Assembly (NCBI GenBank): GCA_006226565.1
Contig: SBGO01000027.1
Location: 1-61,029, forward strand
Origin: Deltaproteobacteria bacterium
GTDB taxonomy: Bacteria; Myxococcota_A; UBA9042; PHBI01
Length of the DNA stretch: 61,029 nucleotides
Direction: 5' to 3'
Part shown: one piece after another, positions 13,609 to 51,284 of the stretch
How the letters are laid out: every line of letters starts with the position of its first letter
Numbering within the stretch: the first letter of the stretch is position 1
Notes under the pieces: generated by a model
What the model was told of the DNA's origin: nothing
Database searches by the model: none
What the model saw: the letters and a program-made list of their open reading frames with translations, nothing else
Position numbers and translations under genes: made by a program

Positions 13609-13980
13609 TCAGCTCGTCTCGCCGTCGCCCTTGGGGCGCTTCGAGGAGCGGACCGGGCCGTCGAGGGTGGTCGGCCCGTCGACCCGCAGCCACGCCTTGA
13701 GCTTGTGGACGGTCTTGAGGCCGATGCCCCGGACCCGGGCCAGCTCGAGCGGCGTCTTGAAGCGGTGCTTGGCCCGGTAGGCGACGATGCGCTCGGCCTT
13801 GGCCGGCCCGATCCCCGGCAGGTAGGCGAGCTGCGCCGGGGTCGCGTCGTTGATGTTGACGACGCCGTCGGTCCGGACCGCCGCCTCCGGGGAGGGCGCG
13901 GCCAGCGCGACCCCGCCCGGCAGCGCCAGGGCGAGCGCCAGCAGCGCGGCGACGAGGGGCTTCTTCGAGGTGGAGAGCAT
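13609..13980 (-). CDS. comEA: ComEA family helix-hairpin-helix DNA-binding protein, exported
   Basis: Signal peptide; VNINDATPAQLAYLPGIGPAKAERIVAYR..F....L.RVRGIG; AAGGAG RBS. Confidence 0.88.
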   Translation of the reverse strand: MLSTSKKPLVAALLALALALPGGVALAAPSPEAAVRTDGVVNINDATPAQLAYLPGIGPAKAERIVAYRAKHRFKTPLELARVRGIGLKTVHKLKAWLRVDGPTTLDGPVRSSKRPKGDGETS

Positions 13981-14032
13981 GGGAGACTCCTTGGTCTTCG
14001 AGGTGGGACGCCAGAGCGTCGCCGCCTCGCAG

Positions 14033-14048
14033 AGCAGGTCCCGTGCCA
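14033..14048 (-). promoter_or_regulatory. Sigma54 (-24/-12) promoter of the comEA-like gene
   Basis: TGGCAC-GGGAC-CTGCT matches TGGCAC-N5-TTGCW with correct GG/GC spacing, ~53 nt upstream of the ATG. Confidence 0.7.
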
Positions 14049-14112
14049 CCACCGCAAGTCATCGTGATCAAAGAGATATGCGGGGAATCAGGCCGATCGC
14101 GGGACACCGGAA

Positions 14113-18034: not shown

Positions 18035-19111
18035 ATGTTCCAGCAGCTCGATGAAGTCGAGGGCCGCTACGAAGAGCTGACCTCGCTGATGGGCGACCCG
18101 AGCGTCGCGGGCGATCCCGAGCGCTACCGCGAGGTCGCGCGTCAGCAAGCGCAGCTGGCCGAGACGGTCGAGACCTGGCGCACCTACAAGCAGGTGCGCC
18201 TCGATCTCGCCTCCTCACGCGAGCTCCTGCAGGACGACGACCCCGAGATGCGCGAGATGGCGCGGGCCGAGGTCGCCGAGCTCGAGGAGCGCGTCGAGAC
18301 GCTCGAGAGCGAGCTGAAGCTCCTGCTCCTGCCGCGCGACCCGAACGACGAGCGCAACATCATCCTCGAGATCCGGGCCGGCACCGGCGGGGACGAGGCG
18401 ACGCTCTTCGCCGCCGACCTCTTCCGCATGTACAGCCGCTACGCCGAGGGGTGTCGCTGGCGCGTCGAGCCGATCTCGATGAGCTACTCCGAGGTCGACG
18501 GCTTCAAGGAAGTCATCGCCCTCGTGAGCGGCGACCGGGTCTACTCGCGGCTCAAGTTCGAGGCCGGGGTCCACCGCGTGCAGCGCGTCCCCGCGACCGA
18601 GAGCCAGGGCCGGATCCACACCTCGGCCTGCACGGTCGCGGTCATGCCCGAGGCCGACGAGGTCGAGGTGCAGATCGACCCGAACGACCTGCGGATCGAC
18701 GTCTACCGCTCCTCCGGGCCCGGCGGCCAGTCGGTGAACACGACCGACAGCGCCGTCCGCGTCACCCACGAGCCCACCGGCCTCGTGGTGATCTGCCAGG
18801 ACGAGAAGTCCCAGCACAAGAACAAGGCCAAGGCGCTCAAGGTGCTGGCGTCCCGTCTCCTCGAGATCGAGACCCAGAAGGCCCACGCCGCCGAGTCCGA
18901 CGCCCGCCGCGCGATGGTCGGCTCCGGCGACCGCTCCGAGCGCATCCGGACCTACAACTTCCCCCAGAACCGGCTGACCGACCACCGCATCGGCCTGACC
19001 CTCTACCGCCTCGACAGCATCATCGAGGGGGAGGGCCTGGGCGAGGTGCTCGACGCCTGCACCGCCTACTTCAACGCGCAGCTGCTCAAGCAGCAGGAAG
19101 CGTCCGAGTAG
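18035..19111 (+). CDS. prfA: Peptide chain release factor 1
   Basis: [23 protein letters not shown] (PxT motif), [31 protein letters not shown]. Confidence 0.97.
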
Positions 19112-19168
19112 GGCCCCCGTCGGGCGGGGCGGACCCGAGCCGGTCCGCCGCCACCCGAGCGATCGTCT

Positions 19169-19810
19169 CTACTGCGCGCCGGCCGGCATCGGCGTGCGGT
19201 TGGCGACCTCGCGCGAGAACCAGCCGCCGGTCAGGGCGTCGAGGTCCGCCGTCAGGCCGTCGATGCGGAGCTGCTGGCGGAGCGCCTTCTCCACGCTCGT
19301 CGGCGGGCTCATCTCCATCTCGACCTGGAGCTGACGGCGCGCGTAGTAGAGCTTGTTGACCGTCGTGAGGATGTCCTCGCGCTGGTTCACGAGGCGCTCG
19401 ATCTGGCGCGTCGCCTGGATCCCGTCGCGGTTGAAGACGAGGCGGGTCAGGTCCCACTCGGCGCGGAGCTCGAGCTGCAGCTCACCGTCGGTCGACACGA
19501 GGTCACTCACCGAGCCCGACCCCGAGCTCGTCGTGCGCACGTCCGTGTCGTCCCCGTCGGTCCGCCGGAGGCGCCCGTACAGGCGTCGCGGCAGGAGGTT
19601 GGCGAAGCGCGCCTCGGACTGCCACGACTCGTAGGCCTCGGGGTTGACCCGGGCGTACTTCGCGGCCGCCCGCTGCACCTCGACCACGGTCGGCTCGAAG
19701 TCGAACTTCGCCAGGAGGCGCCGCGCCTGGATCATCGGGTCGGTGTCCGCGTGCGCCGCCGGGGCGGTGACGACGATGGCGACGGCCAAGGTTGCGAGGA
19801 TGTGCTTCAT
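19169..19810 (-). CDS. Exported protein resembling a single (half) TolC/OEP repeat
   Basis: C-terminal part of ORF 19169..20587, ATG 19810. Signal peptide MKHILATLAVAIVVTAPAAHA; helix-helix-LLP-strand-loop-strand-WDL-long helices ending ALTGGWF. ATGA overlap with the upstream gene. Confidence 0.7.
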   Translation of the reverse strand: MKHILATLAVAIVVTAPAAHADTDPMIQARRLLAKFDFEPTVVEVQRAAAKYARVNPEAYESWQSEARFANLLPRRLYGRLRRTDGDDTDVRTTSSGSGSVSDLVSTDGELQLELRAEWDLTRLVFNRDGIQATRQIERLVNQREDILTTVNKLYYARRQLQVEMEMSPPTSVEKALRQQLRIDGLTADLDALTGGWFSREVANRTPMPAGAQ

Positions 19811-21798
19811 GGCGAGGGGTCTCCGGGAGACGGGGGGGCGTCGACGGCGGCGCGGGTGACGCCGATGATCGGGAACTTGCCGGCGGTGTACACGTGGAGG
19901 TCGGCCTCGAGCTGCTCGATCGCCAGCAGCTCGGAGACCGCGTCGCGGGTCGAGGTGAACTCGGTCGCGACGAGGTCGATGCGCTTCTTCATCCAGGTCT
20001 GGTAGAGCGGCCCCACGGTGTCGCGGACCCGCTTCTGGCCGCGTCGGGCGGCGATCTCGGCCGCGCGGATGGCGGGGTCGGTGCCCTCGAGGGCCAGCAT
20101 CAGCGCGGGCATCAGGTCCCAGCGCAGCTCGACGCGGATCTCGTCGTTCACCGGCTGCACCTCGACCGCGTCGAGGATGCGGCGGCCGACGGCCGGGATG
20201 AAGAGGTACTCCTCGACGCGCTTCTCGGTCGAGATCACGCGGAAGTAGGCGTGCGGCAGGAGCCACGCGAGCGAGCTCTCGGTCTCCCAGCGCTTGGCGT
20301 CGCCGACCTTGATCGCCCGCGCGTTCGACGCCCAGCCCAGCGTCTCCTCCGCCGACGGCAGCCCCTCGAGGGCGCGCCGGGCCTGGAACTGCGCCCGCTT
20401 GGTCCAGAGCTTCTCCTGCTCCGGCACGAGCCGCGCGGTGCCGCCACGGCCGACGACGTAGAGGAAGCTCGACCCGGCCTGGGCCGGCGCGACGTCGGCG
20501 AGGCGCCGGTCGATGAGGCCTTCGTCCCGGCGCCGCCAGCCCGTCTCGGCGTCGTACTCCCAAGCCCCCGCGGCGCCGATCGCCCACACCGCTCCCGACC
20601 GTCCGGGGGCGAGGCGGAGGATCCCGGGGACCTGCCAGCGGGAGTCGACGAAGGCCAGCCCATCGGGCTCGGCCACCACGAGGGTCACGTGATCGGTCGA
20701 GGCGACCAGGAAGCGACGCTCGTCGATCTGCAGCAGATCGGTCGTCGCCTCGCGGCTGCGGCCGAGGCCCAGCGGCACCATCCCGACCGGGGTCTCGATG
20801 CGCAGGCCGTCGCTCGCGACCAGCACGAGCCGCGACCCCACCTGCGCCATGACGAAGATCGGCAGGTCCTCGTTGCTACCGACGACCCGCCGGCCCAGCC
20901 CGTCGTCGCCGAGCTCGAGGAGCCCGCGCTCGGTGGCGAGGATGGTGCGTCCGCGCGCGTCGCGCAGCACGTCGTTGACCGCCACGCGGCGGCCGCCGAA
21001 GCGCACCTCGCGCCCGGTGCCGGGCCGCCGCGCCGCGCGGTCGACGGTCCAGAGCCCGCGCCCGGTGCACACGTAGATCTTGTCCTCGATGACCCGCAGC
21101 CGCGTGACGCCGAAGCGGTCGTTCGAGTCCCCGGACGCCCCGGCCGCGTCGAGCGCATCGGACGCGTCGTCGGCCTCGTCACCGGAGACCGTCTCGGTCC
21201 CGGGGCTGATGGGCAGCCCGGTCAGCGGGTCGATGTCGTCGTTGGCGTCGATCGCGTCGGTGTCGTCGCTGTTGTAGAGCTCGCCGGTGTCGGGATCGAT
21301 CTGGTCGCCGTCCTCGCCGGTGACGACCTCTGCCTCGCCCGGATCGTCGGGGCGGACCGGGTCCACCTCGATCTGCTCGCCCTCGCCGGTGTTGCGCTCG
21401 ATCGCCGTCGCCCGGGACAGCTGGAGCACGAGCGAGAAGGTGTCGCCGGCGTCGTCCGAGACCCAGACGCTGGAGTTCGAAGCGATCCACAGGATCTGCG
21501 GGTCGACCGGGTCGCTCACCACGGCGGTCATGCCGGCCGTGCCCGGGACCGGCCCGATCGGCTCCCACACGAGCTCCGCGTGGGCGGCGCCCCCGCCCGC
21601 GAGCAGGAGCCACGTCGCCGCGAGCGACACGAGCGCCCGACGCGCGAGCGTCCACGTGCGCGGGGGCGAGGTCGGAGCCACCGGGATCGGCCGTGAGCAC
21701 GCGCGGGAAATCAGCGGGTCGCTCCTGTGGTGAGGAGGTGCGCCGGCGGTCACAGGGAACGCCGCGGCCACTGTAGAGGGCCGCGCGCTCGTCGGCAA
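19807..21798 (-). CDS. Exported beta-propeller (BNR/WD40-like) protein with acidic insert and C-terminal half TolC/OEP-like repeat
   Basis: Signal peptide ending GGGAAHA; W.S.DAG.TF BNR-like motif; propeller blades; D/E-rich insert; C-terminal ~150 aa similar to the 19169..19810 protein. Start uncertain (TTG 21798 or GTG 21681). Confidence 0.7.
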   Translation of the reverse strand: MPTSARPSTVAAAFPVTAGAPPHHRSDPLISRACSRPIPVAPTSPPRTWTLARRALVSLAATWLLLAGGGAAHAELVWEPIGPVPGTAGMTAVVSDPVDPQILWIASNSSVWVSDDAGDTFSLVLQLSRATAIERNTGEGEQIEVDPVRPDDPGEAEVVTGEDGDQIDPDTGELYNSDDTDAIDANDDIDPLTGLPISPGTETVSGDEADDASDALDAAGASGDSNDRFGVTRLRVIEDKIYVCTGRGLWTVDRAARRPGTGREVRFGGRRVAVNDVLRDARGRTILATERGLLELGDDGLGRRVVGSNEDLPIFVMAQVGSRLVLVASDGLRIETPVGMVPLGLGRSREATTDLLQIDERRFLVASTDHVTLVVAEPDGLAFVDSRWQVPGILRLAPGRSGAVWAIGAAGAWEYDAETGWRRRDEGLIDRRLADVAPAQAGSSFLYVVGRGGTARLVPEQEKLWTKRAQFQARRALEGLPSAEETLGWASNARAIKVGDAKRWETESSLAWLLPHAYFRVISTEKRVEEYLFIPAVGRRILDAVEVQPVNDEIRVELRWDLMPALMLALEGTDPAIRAAEIAARRGQKRVRDTVGPLYQTWMKKRIDLVATEFTSTRDAVSELLAIEQLEADLHVYTAGKFPIIGVTRAAVDAPPSPGDPSP

Positions 21799-21812
21799 CT
21801 ACGTCCTCGCCC

Positions 21813-22916
21813 TCACCAGTCGTCCGGCGCGAACTCCACCACCCACGGGACCCACTGCTCGGTCGGCGTCCCGTCCACGAGGCCCGGCGAGAAGAGGAGC
21901 TGGCGGCCCACCTTCTCGGCCTCCCGATCGAAGGCGCCGCCGGCGCCGCGCACGATCTTGACGCGCTTCACCGTGCCGTCGGTGCCCACGAGCAGCGACA
22001 GCGCGACCGAGACCGAGCGCCCGAGGCGCGGCGCGTCCTCCGGATAGACGCCGCGCACCCGCTTCTTCACCTTGGGCGGCGTCCGCTTCGGGGCGCGCGT
22101 GCCCCCGGTGCCGTCGCCGACCTCGTCGGGCACCTTGTCGGGGTCGTCCACCTGCTCGACGTTGGTGTTGCGCTCGTTCGCCTCGACGCTCGCGTCGCCG
22201 AGGATGTCCTGCTCGCCGGACTGGATCGCCACGCCCTTGCCGAGCTTGGTGAGCCCGGTCAGCACCAGCGGCGCCGGCTCGTTCTTGGGCGCGTCCTTCG
22301 GCGACTCGCGCTTCGTCTCGTTCTTCGGCTTGGGCTGCCCGGCCTTCTTGATGTGGTTCTTGGGCTTGCGCGTCGGCGCCTTCTTCTCGTCCGGCTTGTC
22401 GGTGACCTTCTCGGTCTCCTTCACGACGGGCTTGATCGGCTCGGGCGGCGGCTCGGGGGGCTTGGGCGGCTCGGGCGGTGGGGTGATCTTCGGCAGCACG
22501 AGCGCCGCCGTCGGCAGCTCCTCGAAGGACGTCGGCTGGGGGCACGGCGCCGAGTCGCGCGTGACGACGAGCTCGCGGCTCCCGAGGTGCCAGGTCAGGC
22601 TCGGCCCCTCGAAGCTCACCTCGAGGGCGCCGCGGGGGAACTCGCCCCCCTTCCCCGGGAGGAAGCTCCGCGGCTGCCCGCGGTCGGCCGCGCCGGGGCT
22701 GAAGCGGTTCTCCTCGCCGACCGGGAAGGCCAGCGGCTCGTCCTCGACGTTGTCCCAGCCGAGGTAGGCGACCGCGGTCCGGTCACTGACGACCTTCACG
22801 CACATGAGCGTAGGGCGGACCGGCGAGTACACCGAGCGCACGACGCCGATGGCGACGCCGCCGCTGCTCACCGCGACAGCGACCGCGATGGCCAGCCGCT
22901 TGCCCTGACTCAGCAC
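21813..22916 (-). CDS. tonB: TonB family energy transducer with an extra periplasmic domain
   Basis: N-terminal TM; inserted domain (YLGWDN..FPVGEENRFSPG..DRGQP..FLPG); Pro/Lys-rich linker PEPPKPPEPP; TonB_C-like YPEDA..V.L...GTV..VKIV...FD.EA......F.P. Confidence 0.8.
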   Translation of the reverse strand: MLSQGKRLAIAVAVAVSSGGVAIGVVRSVYSPVRPTLMCVKVVSDRTAVAYLGWDNVEDEPLAFPVGEENRFSPGAADRGQPRSFLPGKGGEFPRGALEVSFEGPSLTWHLGSRELVVTRDSAPCPQPTSFEELPTAALVLPKITPPPEPPKPPEPPPEPIKPVVKETEKVTDKPDEKKAPTRKPKNHIKKAGQPKPKNETKRESPKDAPKNEPAPLVLTGLTKLGKGVAIQSGEQDILGDASVEANERNTNVEQVDDPDKVPDEVGDGTGGTRAPKRTPPKVKKRVRGVYPEDAPRLGRSVSVALSLLVGTDGTVKRVKIVRGAGGAFDREAEKVGRQLLFSPGLVDGTPTEQWVPWVVEFAPDDW

Positions 22917-22917
22917 G

Positions 22918-23364
22918 CTATTGAATCTCCATCGGCTTGGTGTTGATCGCCACGTCGGGGATCCCGAGCAGTCGGATGGTGTCGATGACCTTCAGCACGT
23001 CTCCGTGGCTCAGGCGCTCGTCGGCGGCCACGAAGGCCTCGAGCTTGGCGCCGCGCGCCTTCATGTCGCCCACGTAGCCTTTGATGCCATCGAGGTCGGT
23101 CTTGTTCCCGTTGAGGAACAGGTCGCCGTCCTTGTTGATGGCGAGGGACAGCAGGGACTTGTTCGGCGACTCCTCGGCCGTCGCGGCCATGGGGAGCTGC
23201 ACGGGCACGTTCGGCGGCGGCTTGTAGTCCTCGAACTTCTCCTGCACGAACTCGGTCGTGACCATGAAGATGATGAGGAGCACGAGCATGATGTCGACGA
23301 GGGGGACGACGTTGATCTCGTTGAGCCCCTCCTCGTTGTCGTGAAGGCTACCCCCGGCCACCAT
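22918..23364 (-). CDS. exbD: ExbD/TolR biopolymer transport protein
   Basis: EINVVPLVDIMLVLLIIFMVT, VQLP.A, ADERLSHGDVLKVID. Confidence 0.93.
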   Translation of the reverse strand: MVAGGSLHDNEEGLNEINVVPLVDIMLVLLIIFMVTTEFVQEKFEDYKPPPNVPVQLPMAATAEESPNKSLLSLAINKDGDLFLNGNKTDLDGIKGYVGDMKARGAKLEAFVAADERLSHGDVLKVIDTIRLLGIPDVAINTKPMEIQ

Positions 23365-24013
23365 TGCCTCCGTGCGGACCGTGGGGGTCCGCCTTGAGGT
23401 AGGCGAGCAGCATCCGCGCCACGCTCTCGGTGTTGCCGGCCATGATGCGGATCCGGTTCTTGAAGGCGTTGAACGCGACGACCGACGGGATCGCCACGCC
23501 GAGGCCGACCGCCGTCGCGATCAGCGCCTCGCCGATGCTGCTCATGACCTGGGCCTTCAGCACGGTCCCCTCGGCGCCGCTGCCGAGGGCGCTGAAGGCG
23601 CTGAGGATGCCGATGACGGTGCCGAAGAGGCCGATGAACGGCGCGCTGTTGCCCAGGGTGCCGAGGATCGGGAGGAAGCGGTCGTAGTAGACGCGCTGCT
23701 GGGCGATGGACGCCTGGATCACCTCCTCGACCGCGTTGACCCCGTCACCCCACGCGTCGAGCGCGGCGTGCAGGACCCCTCCGGTCATCCCCGAGAGCCC
23801 CTCGACCGAGCGCCGCGCGGCGTCGGGGCCGCCCCGCTTCAGCGCCGCGACGACCTGCTTGCTCAGCGCCTCCGGGTCGACCCGGTGGCGCCGGAAGAAG
23901 ATGAAGCGCTCGACCATCACGACGATGGCGAGCACGCCGAGCGCCACGAGGAGCCAGAGCACCCACTCGGCGCCGAGGTGTTCGAAGAACTGCAGCAGGC
24001 TTTCGGTGAGCAT
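23348..24013 (-). CDS. exbB: MotA/TolQ/ExbB proton channel protein
   Basis: LGTLGNSAPFIGLFGTVIGI, IGEALIATAVGLGVAIPSVVAFN; ATG 24013. Confidence 0.93.
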   Translation of the reverse strand: MLTESLLQFFEHLGAEWVLWLLVALGVLAIVVMVERFIFFRRHRVDPEALSKQVVAALKRGGPDAARRSVEGLSGMTGGVLHAALDAWGDGVNAVEEVIQASIAQQRVYYDRFLPILGTLGNSAPFIGLFGTVIGILSAFSALGSGAEGTVLKAQVMSSIGEALIATAVGLGVAIPSVVAFNAFKNRIRIMAGNTESVARMLLAYLKADPHGPHGGNGGRG

Positions 24014-24200
24014 GTGTGTCCTGAGCGATGAGCGGACCGATGAAGCGCAGCGTTCTAGATACGGACACTCGGCGGTTCGGCCAAGCAGGAATTTGGGCCG
24101 CCCGGCCCCGCGCGCGTAACGGCGGAGCCCTTCGAACGGCGCCCCGAGGGGGCGAGCGCGGCCGTGACACGGGGCGGGCCCGCGTGCTAACGAACGCGCC

Positions 24201-24956
24201 ATGTCGGGTCACAACAAATGGAGCACCATCAAGCACCGCAAGGGCGCGCAGGACGCCAAGCGGGGAAAGGTCTTCACGAAGCTCATCAAGGAGCTCACGG
24301 TCTCCGCGCGCCTCGGAGGGGGCGACCCCGGCGGTAACCCGCGGCTGCGCGCCGCGCTGTCGGCCGCGCGCGCAGCCAACATGCCCAAGGACAACATCGA
24401 CCGCGCCATCAAGAAGGGCACCGGCGAGCTCGAGGGCGTCGATTACGTCGAGGTCAACTACGAGGGCTACGGCCCCGAGGGCGTGGCGCTCCTCATCGAG
24501 ACGCTGACCGACAACTCGAACCGCACCGTGAGCGAGGTCCGCGGCGTCTTCCACAAGCGCCACGGCAAGATGGGTGAGCCCGGCTCGGTCGCCTGGATGT
24601 TCGAGCAGAAGGGCGAGGTCAAGCTCGACAAGGCCGTCGGCGACTTCGAGGCGCTCTTCGAGCTCGCCCTCGAGGCCGGCGCCGAGGACGTCGTCGACGG
24701 CGGCGACACCTGGAACGTGATGACGAGCCGGGACGCGCTCTACGCCGTCAGCGGCGCCATCGAGGAGCACGGCCACGAGCCGGTCGAGACCTCGCTCGTC
24801 CAGGTGCCGCAGACCGTCGTCGAGATCACCGACGTGGACCTGGCCCACCGGATCCTCGGCATCGTCGAGGCCTTCGAGGACCTCGACGACGTGCAGAAGG
24901 TCTGGGCGAACTTCGACTTCACCGACGACGTCGCCGCGGCGCTGGCCGAGGACTGA
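24201..24956 (+). CDS. yebC: YebC/PmpR family regulator
   Basis: MSGHNKWSTIKHRKG, NPRLR, NMPKDNIDRAIKK, YEGYGPEG, EDLDDVQKVWAN. Confidence 0.97.
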   Translation: MSGHNKWSTIKHRKGAQDAKRGKVFTKLIKELTVSARLGGGDPGGNPRLRAALSAARAANMPKDNIDRAIKKGTGELEGVDYVEVNYEGYGPEGVALLIETLTDNSNRTVSEVRGVFHKRHGKMGEPGSVAWMFEQKGEVKLDKAVGDFEALFELALEAGAEDVVDGGDTWNVMTSRDALYAVSGAIEEHGHEPVETSLVQVPQTVVEITDVDLAHRILGIVEAFEDLDDVQKVWANFDFTDDVAAALAED

Positions 24957-28293: not shown

Positions 28294-29283
28294 TCAGGTG
28301 CCGAGCTCTTCCGTCACCGGCATCGAGAGGCGCGTCGTCGCCGGCCGCCGTCGGGCCGCCTGGGGCTCGCCGGCGAGGTCGCGGAGCGCGCGTCGGACCT
28401 CGCTCGCGCTCGCCGGGCGGTGCGCCCGGTCCTTGGCGAGCAGGCGCTGCACCAGACGCTCGGCGCTGAGCGGGAGGTCGCGATCGGGCGCCACCGTATA
28501 CATCGGCGGCACCGGCGCCTCGAGGTGCGCCTCATAGAGGCCGCGCCGCGAGTGGGCGGTGAACGGGAGCCGGCCGGTCAGCATCCGGTAGAGGACCACG
28601 CCGAACTGGTAGAGGTCCGTCCGCTGGTCGAGCGGCCCGGCCAGGACCTGCTCGGGCGCGAGGTACTCGGGCGTGCCGACGATGCGTCCGGTGGGATCGC
28701 CGAGCCAGACCATGTCCATGTGGCAGGCGATCCCGAAGTCGAGCAGCTTCACCCGCCAGCGATCGCGCTGGGTGAGGTCGATGTAGAGGTTGGTCGGCTT
28801 GATGTCGCGGTGGATGATCCGCGCCTCGTGGATGTGCTCGAGCGCGCGCAGGATCTGATCGGCGACCGCCAGCGCGTCCCCGAGCCGCAGCGGGCGCTGC
28901 TCGATCACGCGCTGCAGCGAGCGCCCCCGCAGGCGCTCCATCGCGCAGTAGAGGGCGCCGGTCTCGGTGAAGCCGTGCTCGTAGACGCGGGCGATGTGCT
29001 CGTGGTCGAAGCCGGCGCTGATGCTGATCCCGTGCCGCGTTCGCACCAGCTCCGGGGCGTCCTCGAGGGGCACGATCTTCAGCGCGACGGAGCGCAGCTG
29101 CTGCGTGTCCTGCGCGTGCCACACCGTCGTGAGCCCGGTGCCGAGGCCGATCAGGCGCCCGATCAGATAGCGACCCGCGACGAGCTGACCGCTGCGATCG
29201 GCGATCGGCGCAAGATCGTGTTCAGGACACCGTTGCGTTGCGGTCGACGACGGGCGCCAACATTGGGGGCAGACGTTTTGCAC
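28294..29283 (-). CDS. Ser/Thr protein kinase with N-terminal zinc ribbon
   Basis: C-terminal part of ORF 28294..30309 from GTG 29283: CPQC..CPEH, VALK, HRDIKPTN, DFG, GTPEYLAPE. Confidence 0.85.
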   Translation of the reverse strand: MQNVCPQCWRPSSTATQRCPEHDLAPIADRSGQLVAGRYLIGRLIGLGTGLTTVWHAQDTQQLRSVALKIVPLEDAPELVRTRHGISISAGFDHEHIARVYEHGFTETGALYCAMERLRGRSLQRVIEQRPLRLGDALAVADQILRALEHIHEARIIHRDIKPTNLYIDLTQRDRWRVKLLDFGIACHMDMVWLGDPTGRIVGTPEYLAPEQVLAGPLDQRTDLYQFGVVLYRMLTGRLPFTAHSRRGLYEAHLEAPVPPMYTVAPDRDLPLSAERLVQRLLAKDRAHRPASASEVRRALRDLAGEPQAARRRPATTRLSMPVTEELGT

Positions 29284-29420
29284 GAGACAAGACCCTGGTC
29301 GGCGGCTCCCCGGAGGGGCCGGATCTTCATGCAAGCACCCTTTCCGCGCTGCGGCAAACTTCTCGGTTAAATCGACGTTCCAGGCGGGGATCCGCGATCC
29401 TAAACGTCTGTTCTCGTTCG

Positions 29421-30983
29421 CTATGGCAGATCTTGAGGCGGGAAATCGTGGTACGCGGCGCTCATTGCGCGGGGCAACATATAGTCGAGCCCGCTGAAGG
29501 TGGCGAAGGGGTTGGCGGCGCTCACGCAGCGGGTCGGGTCGGCGAAATCCTTGGCCCAACGCCACGGGACGCACCAGCCGTCGGGATCGAGGTTGCCGCC
29601 CGTCGGTGGCGTGGCCGGGGCGCTCAGGAAGCGGGCGGCCGTCTCGTGCAGCGCCGCGTCGTCGTCGCCGAAGCGGTAGCGCGCGTACATGGCGTAGAGG
29701 GCGTTGCCCTCGGCGATCAGATCGGCGCGATCCACGATGGCCGAGAACCAATCGGGCGAGGTCGGATCGTCGTCGAGGGCGGCGACGGCCGCGTCCCCGC
29801 CGAGGCCGATGTTGAACTCGTTGCAGGCGATCGACTGCGCGTACGGGATCCCGAGGAGCGGCTGGAGATCGATCGTGTGCCCGGAGACGCAGGCGCTCGA
29901 GAAGCGGATCGCGTAGCGGATGAACCACTTCCCGATCGGCGCCTGGTCGGCGGGCGCGACCGGGAGACCGACGATGTGCCAGGTCGCGTCGAAGTCCGCC
30001 TTCGGCTGCCCGGTCACGCGGGCGAAGCCCTGGGCGAAGGCCCACGACACCCAGCGCTGGTCGTCCCCGCGCGCGACCGGCTCGCCGAGGATGTTGGTCA
30101 TCTGGAAGGCCACGCGTTTGAGGTAGCCGCCGAGGCGGGCGGCGTGGGCGCGCGCCAGCGCCTTCAGGTCCACCCCGGCGTGGACGAGCGGGCCCGGCGT
30201 GGAGACGACGTCGGACAGCGCGCGCAGGGTGCCCAGCATCTGGTCGCCGGAGGGCTCGTTGTCGCGCGTGCCGAGGTTCGGCCAGCAGGTGCCGGCGACG
30301 GTCACGCACCAGTTGTTCTCGTAGTCCGGGCCGACGTCGCTGCGGTAGACGTAGCCGTCGAGCGGGTCGGAGACGAGGTAGCCGTGGGCCGCGTCCGCCG
30401 GCAGCGCGTCGAGCGCGGCGTAGCCGTCGAGGACCTCGTGGGCGTAGGCGAGCGACTCCTCGAGCCCGGCGGCGCGGTACTCGTAGATGAAGGTCGAGAG
30501 GGCGTAGCCCATCCAGAGGGTGTTGTCGCCGAAGGTCGGGACGCCCCCCTCGCGGCGGTCGGACACGCGGCCGGCCTGATAGTGCTGCGCCAGGAAGTGC
30601 GGTCGGTAGACGTCCCAGTACTTGGTGCCGAAGATCGCCCGCGGATCGAGCGGCCCGCTCGTATCCGTGGCCACGAAGGTGTCGGCGAGCGCCGTGTCCG
30701 CCTCGCTCGCGTCGGCGTCGTCGAGCGGCGTCACGTCGCCGTCCGCGTCGGGCCCGGTGTCGAAGGCGGCGGTGTCCTCCGCGTCCGCGGCCGAGTCCGC
30801 GGCGAAGACGTCGTCCGTGACCGCGTCATCGCTGTCGTCCTCCGCGTCCGTGGCGTCCTCGACGGGCGCCCCGGTGTCGCCGGCGTCGTCCGACACGATC
30901 CCGTCGTCGGTCCCGCCGCCGCAGGCGACGCCGGCGGTCAGGCACGACAAGGCCAGGGCCGCCACGCGCGCACGTCCCCTCAT
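29421..30983 (-). CDS. Hypothetical lipoprotein with Asp/Ala-rich linker and helical, possibly six-hairpin glycosidase-like, domain
   Basis: ATG 30983; AGVAC lipobox; ~90-aa acidic linker; GDNTLWMGY, YRSD, PSGDQMLG motifs. The fold call is tentative. Confidence 0.6.
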   Translation of the reverse strand: MRGRARVAALALSCLTAGVACGGGTDDGIVSDDAGDTGAPVEDATDAEDDSDDAVTDDVFAADSAADAEDTAAFDTGPDADGDVTPLDDADASEADTALADTFVATDTSGPLDPRAIFGTKYWDVYRPHFLAQHYQAGRVSDRREGGVPTFGDNTLWMGYALSTFIYEYRAAGLEESLAYAHEVLDGYAALDALPADAAHGYLVSDPLDGYVYRSDVGPDYENNWCVTVAGTCWPNLGTRDNEPSGDQMLGTLRALSDVVSTPGPLVHAGVDLKALARAHAARLGGYLKRVAFQMTNILGEPVARGDDQRWVSWAFAQGFARVTGQPKADFDATWHIVGLPVAPADQAPIGKWFIRYAIRFSSACVSGHTIDLQPLLGIPYAQSIACNEFNIGLGGDAAVAALDDDPTSPDWFSAIVDRADLIAEGNALYAMYARYRFGDDDAALHETAARFLSAPATPPTGGNLDPDGWCVPWRWAKDFADPTRCVSAANPFATFSGLDYMLPRAMSAAYHDFPPQDLP

Positions 30984-31160
30984 GCTCCACCTCCCGCGTC
31001 GCAGTCTAGCAGACCGCCGTGCGCCGCACGCACGCGCGGCCGGAGATGGCGCTCGCCCACGGCCCCTCTCTCGCATTGCACCTTGACGGCGCCGGGCGCG
31101 GTCGCGGATCCTGACCTCGCGCGATCTCGCGCGCTCTTCCCGGAAGATAGAGAGCTTTCG

Positions 31161-33887
31161 ATGCCACATCTGCCGCGGATGCTGGTGCTGGTCGCGTGGG
31201 GGCTCGTCGTCAGCGGTGCGCTTGGGTGCGGCGCACAGGGCCCGAGCCCGACGAACGTCGCCGTCGCGATCGCCCCCCTCGACTTGCCCGGCGTCACCAA
31301 CGTCACCTACACCCTGACCGTCTCCAACGAGAGCGGCGCGCAGGTGTGGACGCGCACCCTCGACGCCGACGGCGCCGGCGACGGCGTCGGCTCCGTGAGC
31401 TGGGTCGGGCCCTGCGACGCCGACGACGATCCGGACCTGGACGGCGCCGCGACCAACACCGTCGCGGTCACCATCGACAGCATCGTGACCGCCGCCGGGC
31501 CCCTCGTGGACGGGCTGGACTTCACCAACCCCGCGCCGGCCACCGCGCCCGCCACGCGCGCCGTCGCCTGCCGCGCCAACGCCGACGTCCCCGTCGACTT
31601 CGATCTCACCGTCGCGCGCCGCGCCGCCCAGGGCTTCTTCGACATCGCGGTCGCCTTCGAGGACGTCTTCTGCTCGGCCAAGCTCGACTGCGTGCGAGAA
31701 GGGCAGCCCCTCGAGCTCCTCTTCAACGCCGCGGGAGAGCGCGATCGCACCGTCGTCCTCGGCTTCGCCTGCACCGGAGGGCTCGGCGGCGAGACCTTCC
31801 TCTACCTCGACGCCATCGCCATCGACTGTGGCGCCGCCGGATCGGCGCAGATCGCGCCGGTCGGCCCGGCCGGCAACAAGGGGGCGCTGCCGCCCATCCT
31901 CTTCCAGCACGCCGTCTACTTCGGCGCCGAGCTCCTCCAGAGCGGCGCCACGAGCTGGGGCAAGGCCTACTGGAACGTCGCCCTCGGCATCGACGAGGCC
32001 GCGCTCTCGGCCACCTCGCCCTGCGTGCTCACCGCCCACGGCACCGCGACCTCGATCCGCTTCGACACCGGCGCCGCCCCGACCGGCGCGACCTGGCCCC
32101 AGGTCGACTGGGACGTCACGCTGAACGCCCTCGGGAGCGCGACGCTCACCTGCGCCAACCACGCGGTCTTCGCCCCGGGCAGCGGGGTCGCCGTCAGCTA
32201 CGCCCAGGACGTCGTGTGGCCCTACGAGATGGCGCCCGATCTCCCCAACGACGGGGCCGGGGCGACGGCGAGCGAGAGCGGCGGCAACGCGGTGGCGCCC
32301 GCGTGGGCCACCGGACCGGACCTCGGCACGCTCACCTACGACGCCGCGCTCGACGTGACGCTCACGGCGACCGACGCCGACCCGGCGGACACGGTCACGT
32401 ACTCGAGCCCGGATCTGCCGACCTGGCTCTCCCTCGACCCCGGCACCGGGCGCCTCACCGGGGCGACCGTGGACGAGGTGGCGCTCGGCGCCCTCAGCTT
32501 CGACGTCGTCGCCGACGACGGCCTCCACCAGACGACCCGGACCTTCAGCCTCTACGCGCAGTTCGCCCCCGCCTGCCACACCATCAAGGCCGCGAGCCCG
32601 GGGCTCTCCGGGGTCTCGGTGCACACCCTCGACGCGGTCGGCGACGGCACCGGCGTCTTCGACGCCCTCTGCGACATGACGACCTACGGCGGCGGCTGGA
32701 CCCTGGTCGCCGCGCAGTTCGAGGCCGATCCGGTGCTCTGGGACGAGGGACGGCAGGCGGACTACGACCCGAGCCTGGCGAGCGCCGCCAGCTTCGCCCT
32801 GGTCGGCGCCGACCTCGTCGCCCACAACCAGGTCGCCTTCGGGCGCGCCGCCAGCACCGGCCCGGGCACCTGGGACGTCGCCGCGGTGGACTACCTCCAC
32901 TTCACCTACGACCCGGCGGCCGACTACGCCGAGGTCCCGGTGAACGGGCTCGCCACCACGCGCAGCTACCAGCTCGATCGCCACCTCGGGGGCGTCCACA
33001 ACTCGCACGATCCGGAGCAGTACCTCCAGACCGTGTCACCCGAGTGGCACGACACGCTGAGCCTCGATGCCGGCGGCGGCATGCTCTACACCTGGGCCTA
33101 CTCGCCCAACTACACCACCGTCGAAGGGCGCGGCTTCGCCTTCGAGGCGGCCCGCTACACCGCCCCCGACAGCTTCGCCTGGGCCGTGTGGGTGCGCGAC
33201 GCGCCCGGCAGCGTCGCGCCGAGCTACGCCGACTGCGACGCGTGGAAGACCGCGAACCCCGGCATGAGCGGCCTCTCGGTCCAGGTCATCGACCCGAGCG
33301 GCGCCGACCCGTTCCTCGTGATGTGCGACATGACCAGCTGGGCCGGCGGCTGGACCCTCGCGGCCATCAACTTCGAGCTCGACGCGATCCTCTGGGACGA
33401 GGGGCGCCAGGCGGACTACGAGCCGGCGCTGCGGCCCTCGAAGAGCTTCGCGCTGACCGGCGCCGACCTGCCGAGCCACGGCGAGGCCGCGTTCGGGCGC
33501 CTCCAGTACCTCGCCCCGGGCAGCTGGAGCCAGGGGATGATCGACTACATCGACGTCGTCTACGACCCGAGCGCCGAGTACCTGGAGGAGACCCACGCCG
33601 GCAAGGCGCCGCCCCAGACCGCCTCCTACCAGCTCGATCGGCACCACCACGGCGTCCACAACGGCCACGACCCCGAGGCGATCTACTACGACACGATCGC
33701 CTTCCCGCAATACGTCATCTGGAACGACACGCTGAGCTTCGACGTCGTGACCGGGGACACCACGCCCGACTACACCTGGGCCTTCAGCCCCAACTACACC
33801 GCCGACGACGAGCACAAGGGCTTCGGTTACCTCGGCTCCCTCGTGAACACCCTGGAGCCCTACGGCTGGGCGGTCTGGGTCCGCTGA
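31161..33887 (+). CDS. Modular lipoprotein, paralog 1: conserved Cys-rich N-domain + Ig/He_PIG-like domain + two fibrinogen-like (CDMT..GGWTL) domains
   Basis: ATG 31161; ALGC lipobox; GDGVGSVSWVGPCDA, QGFFDIAVAFEDVFCSAKLDC; LPTWLSLDPGTGRLTG; two repeats ending WAVWVR. Confidence 0.8.
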   Translation: MPHLPRMLVLVAWGLVVSGALGCGAQGPSPTNVAVAIAPLDLPGVTNVTYTLTVSNESGAQVWTRTLDADGAGDGVGSVSWVGPCDADDDPDLDGAATNTVAVTIDSIVTAAGPLVDGLDFTNPAPATAPATRAVACRANADVPVDFDLTVARRAAQGFFDIAVAFEDVFCSAKLDCVREGQPLELLFNAAGERDRTVVLGFACTGGLGGETFLYLDAIAIDCGAAGSAQIAPVGPAGNKGALPPILFQHAVYFGAELLQSGATSWGKAYWNVALGIDEAALSATSPCVLTAHGTATSIRFDTGAAPTGATWPQVDWDVTLNALGSATLTCANHAVFAPGSGVAVSYAQDVVWPYEMAPDLPNDGAGATASESGGNAVAPAWATGPDLGTLTYDAALDVTLTATDADPADTVTYSSPDLPTWLSLDPGTGRLTGATVDEVALGALSFDVVADDGLHQTTRTFSLYAQFAPACHTIKAASPGLSGVSVHTLDAVGDGTGVFDALCDMTTYGGGWTLVAAQFEADPVLWDEGRQADYDPSLASAASFALVGADLVAHNQVAFGRAASTGPGTWDVAAVDYLHFTYDPAADYAEVPVNGLATTRSYQLDRHLGGVHNSHDPEQYLQTVSPEWHDTLSLDAGGGMLYTWAYSPNYTTVEGRGFAFEAARYTAPDSFAWAVWVRDAPGSVAPSYADCDAWKTANPGMSGLSVQVIDPSGADPFLVMCDMTSWAGGWTLAAINFELDAILWDEGRQADYEPALRPSKSFALTGADLPSHGEAAFGRLQYLAPGSWSQGMIDYIDVVYDPSAEYLEETHAGKAPPQTASYQLDRHHHGVHNGHDPEAIYYDTIAFPQYVIWNDTLSFDVVTGDTTPDYTWAFSPNYTADDEHKGFGYLGSLVNTLEPYGWAVWVR

Positions 33888-49197: not shown

Positions 49198-51069
49198 TCA
49201 GCGGACCCAGATCCGTCCCCACTCGCCGAGCTGCGTGCCGAGGCCGACGGTCGAGTAGTCCTGGCCGCAGTGCGGCTCGGCGGTGCGGACGATGTAGCGG
49301 TTCACGCCGCCGCCGAAGCCGTGCCACTCGGCGTAGTTCTGGTAGTAGGTCAGGTTCGAGGGCTTGGCGACGTTGTCCGACGGGTCGTAGGTCTCCGTCA
49401 CCGACCCGCTGATGTCCTCGAGGTTGGTGTGGCCCGCGGTGGGCAGGGTGCGGAAGCGGTACACCGTGACGCCGTTGCTGGCGTGGCACTGGAGGCGCAT
49501 CGCCTGGTACGGCGGCACGTCGGTCTGCGTCCAGGGATAGACGAACGCGCCGAGCGTCGCGTACTGGGCCGGCACCGAGTAGCTCGGGTACCAGCCGCTC
49601 GCCATCAGGGTCCACCCGCCGCCGTCGGTCGTCATGTCGCAGTACACGTCGCGCGGCGGGTACGGGCCCGCGCCGTCGGTGTCGATGGTGTACACGCCGT
49701 CGCCGGTGAGGCCCTGGTACGCGTAGCTCGGCGCGGTCGGGTGGAGGTAGGCGTCGCAGCTCGGGGCGTAGGTGCCGTCGTACCAGCTCCGCCCGGTCCC
49801 GTTGGCCACGACACCGAACACGAAGGGCGCCGCCGGGATGCTCGGCCCGAAGTGGTAGGTGAAGCCCTCTTCGGCGCCGCCGGTGGCCGTGTAGACGGTC
49901 GTCACGGCGGCCGTCGCGCTCCCGAACGTGAGCTTCTCGGAGCCGCAGGTCCCGAGGTCGGCGTCCCAGCGCACCACCGGGTAGACCGCCCCGGCGGCGA
50001 TCTGGCCGCCGTCGACGTTGTCGCTGGTGTTGGCCGAGTCGTCGGCGGTGGCGCGCGTCCGGAGCCGGCAGCTCCCGATGTCGCCGGTCACGCCGAGCGC
50101 CACGTTCCAGTACACCTTCTGGGCGTCGACGCCGCCGCTGGTCAGCTGCTCCTCGCCGCGGAAGACGGCCACCTGGTAGAGGTAGGTGTCGGCGTCGACG
50201 GCGTTGACCCCGACGGCCGCGCAGCCCGTGACCGCGCCCGCCGGGCAGAGGTTGCCGGGCCCGCCGGCCGGGTCGAGGGTCAGGTCGGCCGCGAAGTCGA
50301 CCCCGCTGTTCGGGGCGGTGCAGTCGAGCTCGAGCGCGTCCATGTAGAGCTCGGTGACGACGTCGGCGGCCGTCCCCGCGGTGCACGCGAAGCCGAGCAC
50401 CAGCGTCCGGGCGCGGGCGCCGGTGGCGTCGAAGAGCAGCTTGATGTCCTCGGCCGGCGTGCAGCCGTTGGCGTCGGCGTCGTCGCAGCAGTCGAGCTTG
50501 GCCGAGCAGTAGATGTCGTCGAAGTTGAGCGCGATGTCGAAGAAGCCCTGCTGGGCGGGGCGCATCAGCGTCACGTCGAACTGCACGGCGGCGTCGACGT
50601 TGGGCGCGCAGGTCACGACCTGCGTGAGCGGCCCGGTCACGGGCACGGTCGGGTTCTGGAAGTCGACCGCCGTCCCGGTCACCGCCCCCGCCCCGGTCGC
50701 GGCGCCCGAGGCGAAGGTGCCGGCGTCCGCCGCGAGGATGTCGCCGTCGTACACGCCGACCACCCAGACCTTCACCGTGTTCTCGCTCACCGCCGGGTCG
50801 GCGTCGCACGGGCCGACGTAGCTCGCCGAGCCCGCGCTGTCGCCGTGGGTGCTCGAGGTGACGCGCCGCTGCCACACGACCGCGCCGTCGCCGTTGTCGA
50901 CCTCGAGGTCCCAGACGACGTCGCCCACCCCCACGAGGTTCAGGGCCGCGACGTCGATCTGCACGCCGGGGCCGTCGAAGCCTCGGCCGGAGACCGGCGC
51001 GTCGCCTTCCGCAGCGCACGCCCAGAGACCTGCACACAGGGCGAGCGCGACCAGAGCACGCGATTGCAT
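49198..51069 (-). CDS. Modular lipoprotein, paralog 2: conserved Cys-rich N-domain + one fibrinogen-like (YCDMTTDGGGWTL) domain
   Basis: ATG 51069 with GAGGT RBS; LWAC lipobox; GDSAGSASYVGPCDA, QQGFFDIALNFDDIYCSAKLDC; ends GRIWVR. Confidence 0.85.
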   Translation of the reverse strand: MQSRALVALALCAGLWACAAEGDAPVSGRGFDGPGVQIDVAALNLVGVGDVVWDLEVDNGDGAVVWQRRVTSSTHGDSAGSASYVGPCDADPAVSENTVKVWVVGVYDGDILAADAGTFASGAATGAGAVTGTAVDFQNPTVPVTGPLTQVVTCAPNVDAAVQFDVTLMRPAQQGFFDIALNFDDIYCSAKLDCCDDADANGCTPAEDIKLLFDATGARARTLVLGFACTAGTAADVVTELYMDALELDCTAPNSGVDFAADLTLDPAGGPGNLCPAGAVTGCAAVGVNAVDADTYLYQVAVFRGEEQLTSGGVDAQKVYWNVALGVTGDIGSCRLRTRATADDSANTSDNVDGGQIAAGAVYPVVRWDADLGTCGSEKLTFGSATAAVTTVYTATGGAEEGFTYHFGPSIPAAPFVFGVVANGTGRSWYDGTYAPSCDAYLHPTAPSYAYQGLTGDGVYTIDTDGAGPYPPRDVYCDMTTDGGGWTLMASGWYPSYSVPAQYATLGAFVYPWTQTDVPPYQAMRLQCHASNGVTVYRFRTLPTAGHTNLEDISGSVTETYDPSDNVAKPSNLTYYQNYAEWHGFGGGVNRYIVRTAEPHCGQDYSTVGLGTQLGEWGRIWVR

Positions 51070-51284
51070 GATCAGACCTCGTGGGGGGACGGGAGCAGCT
51101 GTCTGGAGTGGATGGTGGCTACCGCGGCCCGGCATCACCTTGCGGAAAACGCTAGCATCTTCGGTGCTGCGGAGGAAGTGTGCGCCGCACACGCGTGCAA
51201 CGCGCGCCGCGACGAGGGCCCGCCGCGAGTCGACGGGACCGAGGTGCATGCGGCGGGTTTCGGCGGTATCGTCCGCGGGACGCC

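Follow-up and report, generated by a model that had tools for sequence, protein, structure and literature searches.

A TonB/Tol-type motor gene set beside a gene pair for undescribed envelope proteins in a contig of the Myxococcota

We analysed positions 1 to 61,029 of contig SBGO01000027.1 (assembly GCA_006226565.1; hereafter, the window, i.e., the whole stretch of 61,029 nucleotides, with a G+C content of 72%), which comes from a deltaproteobacterium assigned to the Myxococcota. The subject of this study is a run of five consecutive open reading frames (ORFs), g1 to g5, all located on the minus strand between a convergent prfA and a divergent yebC. Genes g1 to g3 are predicted, from their sequences, to encode a motor of the TonB/TolA family, whereas g4 and g5 encode exported proteins of a family for which Pfam, NCBIfam and the searchable literature have no description. 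A first-pass annotation of this DNA had read the five genes as a single tight operon; the five genes are present, but g4-g5 has its own predicted promoter, and the junction upstream of g4 accommodates insertions of 1 to 14 kb in related genomes. The explanation that we prefer, with about even confidence, is that a generic TonB/Tol-type motor stands beside an autonomous and ancient envelope module, i.e., that these are two adjacent but separable units. The features of the cluster are as follows.

23348-24013, minus strand: g1, ExbB/TolQ-like (Pfam MotA_ExbB), 221 aa
22918-23364, minus strand: g2, ExbD/TolR-like (Pfam ExbD), 148 aa
21813-22916, minus strand: g3, TonB-family transducer (Pfam TonB_C), 367 aa
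21770-21798, minus strand: predicted sigma-70-like promoter of g4-g5, TTGCCG-N17-TACAGT, kept across loci
19807-21681, minus strand: g4, secreted propeller with a C-terminal domain (AlphaFold2, Foldseek, N-termini of homologues), given from its most likely start
19169-19810, minus strand: g5, secreted single-domain protein, 213 aa (hhalign, AlphaFold2, Foldseek)

Each of the two units is internally translationally coupled. Genes g1 and g2 overlap by 17 bp (14 bp with the start chosen by the gene caller), g2 and g3 are 1 bp apart, and the g4 stop and the g5 start overlap at ATGA; all three spacings had been reported correctly before. In the metatranscriptome of a related population, small RNA contigs cross the exbB/exbD junction and the g4/g5 junction, and none spans the gap between tonB (g3) and g4.

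The tonB-g4 junction

The tonB-g4 gap was previously given as 14 bp, on the assumption that g4 starts at TTG 21798. We rejected this start because the TTG is the beginning of the -35 hexamer of TTGCCG-N17-TACAGT (21798-21770), its frame is not conserved in locus L009, and the homologues of g4 have ordinary signal peptides. L009 belongs to the closest genome relative of the window, the groundwater metagenome-assembled genome (MAG) "Deltaproteobacteria bacterium HGW-Deltaproteobacteria-14" (g5 identity of 91%). In the DNA alignment of the window and L009, both hexamers are kept, and their surroundings contain indels that are not multiples of three, so that this stretch is non-coding. An ordinary signal peptide directly precedes the conserved motif LVWEPxGPV in 30/30 homologues of g4. 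GTG 21681, with which the Arg-Arg n-region is retained, is the most likely start of g4, but this choice is uncertain; the alternatives are 21630, selected by the gene caller, and, possibly, CTG 21714. With a start at GTG 21681 or at 21630, the tonB-g4 gap amounts to ~131-182 bp.

We searched for the pattern TTGNNN-N16-18-TANNNT between the tonB stop and the early part of g4 (for L014, only in the stretch just upstream of g4) at all motor-linked loci, that is, the window and its relatives in which g4-g5 follows exbB, exbD and tonB. The pattern was found exactly once at each of these loci (11/11), with the consensus GG-TTGCCG-N17-TAGAGT. Across these loci, the pattern has a background frequency of 0.084 per kb per strand, corresponding to 0.30 expected occurrences in 3.6 kb, and the probability that all 11 regions match by chance is approximately 3e-18. 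Because the pattern is conserved in every one of these loci, we predict that g4-g5 has its own conserved promoter; the pair is probably transcribed separately from g1-g3. It should be noted that one result weighs against a complete separation: the scan detected no terminator-like structure after tonB and, therefore, read-through from tonB into g4 is possible. For the annotation of this region, these results mean that the start of g4 is corrected, and the supposed operon is split into two units.

The window and L009 also share the block AGGAGCGAC (window 21722-21726, minus strand; L009:5044-5048), which lies ~45 nt after the g4 promoter, with an in-frame CTG behind it. This block may serve ribosome binding at a non-canonical start, or may simply reflect recent common ancestry.

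The g4 and g5 proteins

Both g4 and g5 are exported, each having a Sec-type signal peptide and no lipobox. Neither protein matches any family in Pfam or NCBIfam, and neither contains the Plug (PF07715) or TonB_dep_Rec domains of TonB-dependent transporters. There are more than 156 close homologues of g5 and 30 homologues of g4, mostly nameless or else labelled "hypothetical protein", except for one g5 homologue that is called "HPt domain-containing protein" (JGI); those that carry an organism label come from Myxococcota or "Deltaproteobacteria" MAGs.

The AlphaFold2 model of g5 (pLDDT of 86) consists of three short helices, a beta-hairpin (76-86/108-118), a helix of 40 residues (128-167) and return helices. 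The model of g4 (mean pLDDT of 74.5) contains a beta-propeller (residues 20-403) that is interrupted by a disordered acidic insert, and a C-terminal domain of ~180 aa with the same order of elements as in g5. The alignment of g5 residues 23-203 with g4 residues 411-591 by hhalign has a probability of 96% and E of 2.2e-9 and, on this basis, we take g5 and the C-terminal domain of g4 to be paralogous; this shared domain is referred to below as the C-domain. The best Foldseek matches of the g4 propeller are generic WD40, Ycf48 and BT4663-type propellers (E of 5e-9), and distant single-gene relatives match the BNR, Sortilin-Vps10 and PSII_BNR models.

The acidic insert occupies residues 74-172 of 607 aa in g4 (window 21115-21410, minus strand; 98 aa, disordered). 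An insert of this kind is present in every g4 of Myxococcota, with a length of 58-98 aa and 14-36 Asp and Glu residues (at least 20 in all but one), and is absent from the single-gene forms in other phyla.

Likeness of the C-domain to a TolC repeat

The first-pass annotation had called the last two genes TolC-like half-channels; this description finds some support in the modelled fold and topology, and none in the sequence. When the g5 model was compared with the PDB using Foldseek, the first 39 matches were all channels of the TolC family (OprM, TolC, CmeC, ST50, VceC, OprN, MtrE, CusC, SilC), and the alignments, of ~200 columns, covered the whole of g5 and about half of each channel. These are the only consistent structural matches of the C-domain. 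The predicted order of elements matches that in OprM, TolC, CmeC and CusC: a helix going up, a beta-hairpin, a long helix going down and a helix back; one strand is amphipathic, and strand 1 comes after a motif with a Pro. Across phyla, strand 2 has 11 consecutive positions at which hydrophobic residues alternate with polar ones, and it ends with an invariant Trp; L-(I/V)-(F/W)-N comes next, and the invariant Pro of A-x-LLP precedes strand 1. We take the LLP and L-(I/V)-(F/W)-N motifs to recall the junction motifs of outer-membrane factors.

Several results count against this assignment. The Foldseek statistics are weak (best E of 0.016, with a probability of 0.85 and a TM of ~0.28; TM of ~0.25-0.3 among the top matches), strand 1 is only weakly hydrophobic, and no sequence match to the outer-membrane factors was obtained: Pfam did not detect OEP (PF02321) in g4 or g5, nor among 59 homologues of g5 at E up to 10; a PDB profile search returned no outer-membrane factor; and hhalign against one OEP protein gave a probability of 0.4%, a weak test in that it involves a single OEP sequence. 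On these tests, we rejected homology to OEP/TolC at the level of sequence.

We also weighed the possibility that the C-domain is a periplasmic oligomerisation scaffold, made of a coiled coil and a beta-hairpin, that carries propeller or ComEA-like domains and resembles TolC only superficially. Such a scaffold would fit the poor superpositions (E from 0.016 to 1, root-mean-square deviation of ~12-15 Angstrom), the lack of any OEP signal, the charge-rich strand 1 of the window protein (RLYGRLRRTDG), the presence of conserved residues in the inter-strand loop, which is unusual for surface loops, and a degree of sequence conservation across phyla that is far above that of typical TolC proteins. 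It is harder to reconcile with 39/39 top structural matches belonging to one family and covering the whole domain, with an order and lengths of elements that agree with one TolC repeat, the junction motifs LLP and L-V-F-N-x-D included, or with the clean 11-residue amphipathic strand 2 and its invariant Trp. We consider the scaffold reading unlikely and, likewise, doubt that the C-domain is no membrane channel at all.

A single TolC repeat is thus the best-supported assignment of the modelled fold, as distinct from established membership in the TolC family. The differences from that family are substantial. TolC-type channels have two tandem repeats per protomer and form homotrimers, whereas g5 and the C-terminus of g4 have one repeat each, encoded by two paralogous genes or, elsewhere, by one propeller-fused gene. 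The long helix comprises ~40 residues in g5, compared to ~67 residues in TolC. The g4/g5 family has an N-terminal propeller or ComEA-type domain, has no OEP sequence match, and in the cluster there is no adaptor or inner-membrane pump gene adjacent to g4-g5. Judging from the models, g4 and g5 are best filed, pending structural proof, as a TolC-type variant in which each chain has a single repeat and a propeller or HHH_3 domain can be appended. The view that the last two genes specify an undescribed envelope component is upheld, each product having one TolC-repeat-like domain and g4 having a propeller in addition.

A second comparison is with the OMP-TolB-like fusions (PMC12204202), in which an outer-membrane element is likewise fused to a periplasmic beta-propeller and which are likewise more widely spread than Tol-Pal. 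These fusions, however, combine a conventional beta-barrel with a six-bladed TolB-type propeller and a Rossmann-like domain, whereas g4 combines a BNR/Ycf48-like propeller with a TolC-repeat-like C-domain.

Distribution and domain architectures

The g5 profile matches 2,496 clusters at 50% identity, of which 1,674 have an E up to 1e-10, and 73 loci in species-representative genomes, and the C-domain family spans at least seven phyla. The domain is strongly conserved, e.g., in the motifs REDILTTVNKLYFARRQLQ and LTADLDALTGGWFS. Searches of the literature for half-size TolC, for TolC-like proteins with a propeller and TonB, and for ComEA with an outer-membrane channel found no description of the g4/g5 family.

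We distinguish three architectures: (i) a stand-alone C-domain of ~200-250 aa; (ii) a ComEA-type HHH_3 domain followed by the C-domain, ~290-340 aa in all, detected in 9/10 tested members and, in addition, in L044 and L055; (iii) a propeller followed by the C-domain, 470-580 aa in all. Myxococcota have the module as the g4 and g5 pair, whereas Omnitrophota, Nitrospirota (including a Nitrospira japonica MAG and Thermodesulfovibrionia), Thermodesulfobacteriota, Planctomycetia, Deferribacteres and CSSED10-310 mostly have one gene for a propeller with a C-domain. No ExbB, ExbD or TonB gene was found within ~7 kb of this single-gene form at ~45 loci outside Myxococcota, where a gene for a TPR protein, polA, coaE, rho and prfA are recurrent downstream neighbours. 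Because the module is present in other phyla without the motor, it is old and self-contained, and it is set among housekeeping genes.

Some neighbours recur. A TPR protein is encoded directly downstream of the propeller and C-domain gene at ~21 Omnitrophota-type loci, and DUF3187 with a short AsmA-like gene lies upstream at ~8 such loci (L031:3320-5287 and ~7 more); these are possible partners in envelope biogenesis. At three loci with the gene pair, L025 (7653-9374), L044 (7570-11091) and L055 (7563-9284), the gene directly downstream specifies a large protein that is secreted and contains Big_5 and lamin-tail domains; this protein may be a cargo of the module or a partner. The proteins that combine HHH_3 with the C-domain are encoded at L044:6602-7573 and L055:6644-7543 and include P0189, P0196, P0197, P0200, P0202, P0203, P0219 and P0228. 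The HHH_3 fusions may point to the handling of DNA in the periplasm and, taken with the Big_5/lamin-tail neighbours, suggest that the cargo could be DNA or large surface proteins. The window itself contains a stand-alone ComEA-like HHH_3 gene (13609-14052, minus strand) within the synteny block g5, prfA, rpmE, rho, glpK, DUF3467, HHH_3, which also occurs in L001, L007, L009, L010, L018 and L022.

The motor genes

The products of g1, g2 and g3 match three Pfam families in the usual order: MotA_ExbB (PF01618; E of 1.2e-26, 93.3 bits, cut-off of 22.9), ExbD (PF02472; E of 4e-26, 92 bits, cut-off of 25.4) and TonB_C (residues 290-359 of g3; E of 6.5e-11, 43 bits, cut-off of 24.6). Accordingly, g1 is a putative ExbB/TolQ-like proton-channel subunit of a motor of the 5:2 type, and g2 retains the transmembrane Asp in VPLVDIMLVLLIIF (VPLVDIMLVLL; read by eye). 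Among the NCBIfam models, the best for g1 is TolQ (TIGR02796; 98 bits, cut-off of 221), compared to 64-71 bits for ExbB, and g2 scores 82 bits with TolR (cut-off of 127), compared to 49 bits with ExbD; every Tol or Exb score of g1 and g2 is far below the equivalog cut-off.

According to an alignment of 17 homologues, g3 consists of an N-terminal transmembrane (TM) helix, a two-Cys domain of ~95 aa, a Pro/Lys-rich spacer (PPPEPPKPPEPPPEP), a pre-CTD segment and TonB_C; the two-Cys domain and the pre-CTD segment are conserved. The TM helix, AIAVAVAVSSGGVAIGVV, does not contain the His of the SHLS motif; short-form relatives of g3 have a His in the TM helix and no two-Cys domain. The two-Cys domain (residues ~30-125; window 22540-22830, minus strand) is covered by no Pfam model and directly follows the TM helix, at the expected site of the "motor box".

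Compared to the canonical ExbB-ExbD-TonB system, the similarities are thus the three families in their usual order, the coupled starts, the Pro-rich spacer and TonB_C, whereas the differences are the scores nearer TolQ/TolR, the absence of the SHLS His and the extra two-Cys domain in g3, and the lack of a receptor gene among the window ORFs scanned and of a Fur box. The claims that receptor and Fur box are absent held: there was no match to Plug or TonB_dep_Rec among 30 other window ORFs, every ORF of at least 500 aa being included, and no Fur-box match with up to three mismatches in the window. The interpretation of the missing receptor as an anomaly did not hold. In E. coli, tonB and exbBD are not linked to receptor genes, and receptor-less tonB loci are common in bacteria; therefore, the missing receptor gene is nothing unusual.

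A recent survey reports that TolA can be told from TonB only through the tolB and pal neighbours, that TolA outside the gamma-proteobacteria is often Pro-rich and TonB-like, and that ruvABC is a prevalent neighbour of tol-pal operons (PMC12204202). As the Tol scores are below the cut-offs and there is no TolB or Pal here, we place the motor no further than the TonB/TolA family. The motor itself is ordinary.

These observations bear on another explanation, that g1-g3 is the TolQRA of this lineage and that g4-g5 replaces TolB-Pal in envelope tethering or in constriction at division. The layout resembles Tol-Pal, in that the genes of the motor and the transducer precede those of a periplasmic propeller protein and of a small protein of the envelope, so that the g4 propeller occupies the slot of TolB in the gene order; g1 and g2 score above ExbB/ExbD on the TolQ/TolR models, a Pro-rich transducer is in keeping with TolA, the cluster adjoins yebC-ruvCAB, and rho, rpmE and prfA provide a housekeeping context on the other flank. 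However, the cluster contains no TolB N-domain (PF04052), PD40 propeller, OmpA-like Pal lipoprotein or CpoB, the propeller matches generic WD40/Ycf48/BNR folds, the Tol scores are far below the cut-offs, and g4-g5 has its own predicted promoter and is found without the motor. The ruvCAB neighbourhood was also considered as proof of Tol identity; this argument is weakened, since g4-g5 is located near yebC/ruvB in loci without the motor as well (L023-L026), so that the neighbourhood is not motor-specific. In our opinion, a Tol-Pal analogue is very unlikely.

Another system with a TolQ-like protein, the Agl-Glt machinery of Myxococcus (TolQ-like, two TolR-like paralogues and glt genes), differs in that only one ExbD-like gene is present here and in that the neighbours in the window are yebC-ruvCAB and prfA-rpmE-rho; the Glt proteins were not compared directly.

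Linkage of g4-g5 to the motor

The order exbB-exbD-tonB-g4-g5 is contiguous in 11 species-level loci of Myxococcota, i.e., the window, L001, L002, L007, L009, L010, L014, L018, L019, L022 and L084, and is kept down to ~40% identity of g4. The conservation of this neighbourhood, as proposed earlier, thus extends to 10 other loci of Myxococcota but fails in at least eight others, where g4-g5 is present without the motor. Unrelated genes are found upstream of g4-g5 in L013, L015, L016, L023-L027 and L068, and some of these loci, such as L013 and L015, are nearer to the window than are motor-linked loci such as L018 and L022.

The tonB-g4 junction is a hot spot for insertions, which range from 1 to 14 kb. 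A HipA-like kinase gene and DUF3037 are inserted in L014 (3712-5050), and an ORF of 387 aa with no known relationship in L019 (3983-5146). In one contig of 30.9 kb (L082:9117-17083 with L004:1-7903), the orthologous motor lies beside ruvCAB and g4-g5 lies beside prfA, with ~14 kb between them that contain an RND pump set, BlaR/BlaI-like genes, cytochrome b/Rieske and other genes. The RND/MFP/OEP set of L082 is an unrelated insertion.

Two facts stand against the separability of the units, in addition to the missing terminator. One is the contiguity in 11 loci itself; the other is that the five-gene block stays intact where the ruv flank (L001) or the prfA flank (L002) is lost. This contiguity exceeds passive synteny and argues for some selective linkage.

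Such linkage would be expected if the motor and TonB were dedicated to g4-g5, with TonB_C binding the g4 propeller or its terminal strand, and with the proton-motive force (pmf) gating or pulling a TolC-like complex for export, import or the handling of DNA. The atypical long-form TonB, with its two-Cys domain and without the TM His, the failure to find a TonB-dependent receptor in the 61-kb window and the expression of both units in the related population are compatible with a dedicated motor. Nevertheless, we regard it as improbable: the pair does not always stand beside exbBD-tonB, being found without the motor at at least eight loci of Myxococcota and ~45 loci of other phyla; its separate transcription, from its own conserved promoter, is probable; the junction tolerates large insertions; and receptor-less tonB operons are, as general knowledge, common. 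Moreover, no TonB box peculiar to the loci with the motor was found: both candidates, the VWE strand near the N-terminus of g4 and the acidic insert, are present with and without the motor.

Overall, action of the motor on the module, either as a dedicated machine or as a Tol-like tether, is somewhat unlikely, whereas the chances that the g4-g5 module works independently of the neighbouring motor are roughly balanced. Under the two-unit explanation that we prefer, the motor is most likely a general energiser that is not obligatorily dedicated to g4-g5.

Proposed mechanism

The two-unit explanation can be outlined as follows. Unit 1 (g1-g2-g3) is translationally coupled and is predicted to encode a pmf-driven motor of the ExbBD/TolQR family with a periplasm-spanning transducer of the TonB/TolA family; it lies next to yebC-ruvCAB, in the manner of proteobacterial tol operons. 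Unit 2 (g4-g5), with its own predicted promoter and the ATGA overlap, encodes two Sec-exported proteins with a common domain of ~180 residues. The g4 and g5 chains could alternate 3+3, which would provide four strands per equivalent of a TolC protomer and produce a 12-stranded barrel in the outer membrane, with a short periplasmic helical tunnel of ~60 Angstrom and with three g4 propellers beside it; the single-gene relatives in other phyla would, presumably, form a homo-hexamer. It should be stressed that the insertion in the outer membrane, the 3+3 stoichiometry, the channel function and the independence of g4-g5 from the motor are what we infer from the models and from the comparison of loci, whereas the identities of the genes, the paralogy of g4 and g5, the conservation of the promoter and the spread of the module over genomes are what the analysis shows.

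If the C-domain forms a one-repeat channel of the TolC type, it would show how TolC could arise by duplication and would represent a new class of outer-membrane conduits with propeller or DNA-binding-type appendages. If the motor in Myxococcota acts on g4-g5, these proteins would be a third kind of outer-membrane target for force transduction by TonB/TolA. The boldest proposal combines both: g4-g5 would be single-repeat relatives of the TolC ancestor before its duplication and would form a 3+3 channel-tunnel (a homo-hexamer elsewhere) that is gated by a dedicated TolQR-like motor, with the atypical TonB pulling on the propellers, and would thus be a new pmf-driven conduit, maybe for DNA or large surface proteins. 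We consider this combination quite unlikely.

Flanking regions and other features of the window

The flanks of the cluster contain the following features.

18035-19111, plus strand: prfA, convergent flank of g5
19124-19151, no strand: G+C-rich hairpin in the 57-bp gap between prfA and g5, possible bidirectional terminator
24014-24200, no strand: intergenic region flanked by the divergent genes g1 and yebC, presumed site of the motor-unit promoter (sequence read)
24201-24956, plus strand: yebC, divergent flank of g1, followed by ruvCAB

The hairpin has the arm GCGGGGCGGACCCGAGCCGGTCCGCCGC, which was listed as a repeat arm and whose self-complementarity was judged by eye; the terminator scan missed it because there is no T run. 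A scan for consensus promoters in the g1-yebC region (24014-24200) found nothing, and the only informative result of the terminator, promoter, Rfam and repeat scans of the whole region was the g4-g5 promoter. The window sequence is also contained in a freshwater-sediment metagenome. Elsewhere in the window, 10-30 kb from the cluster and not linked to it, large ORFs for secreted-looking proteins (29238-33887, plus strand; 49198-51249, minus strand; 53652-55559, plus strand) match He_PIG, fibrinogen-C, GON and teneurin-type EGF domains, a set that is unusual in a bacterium.

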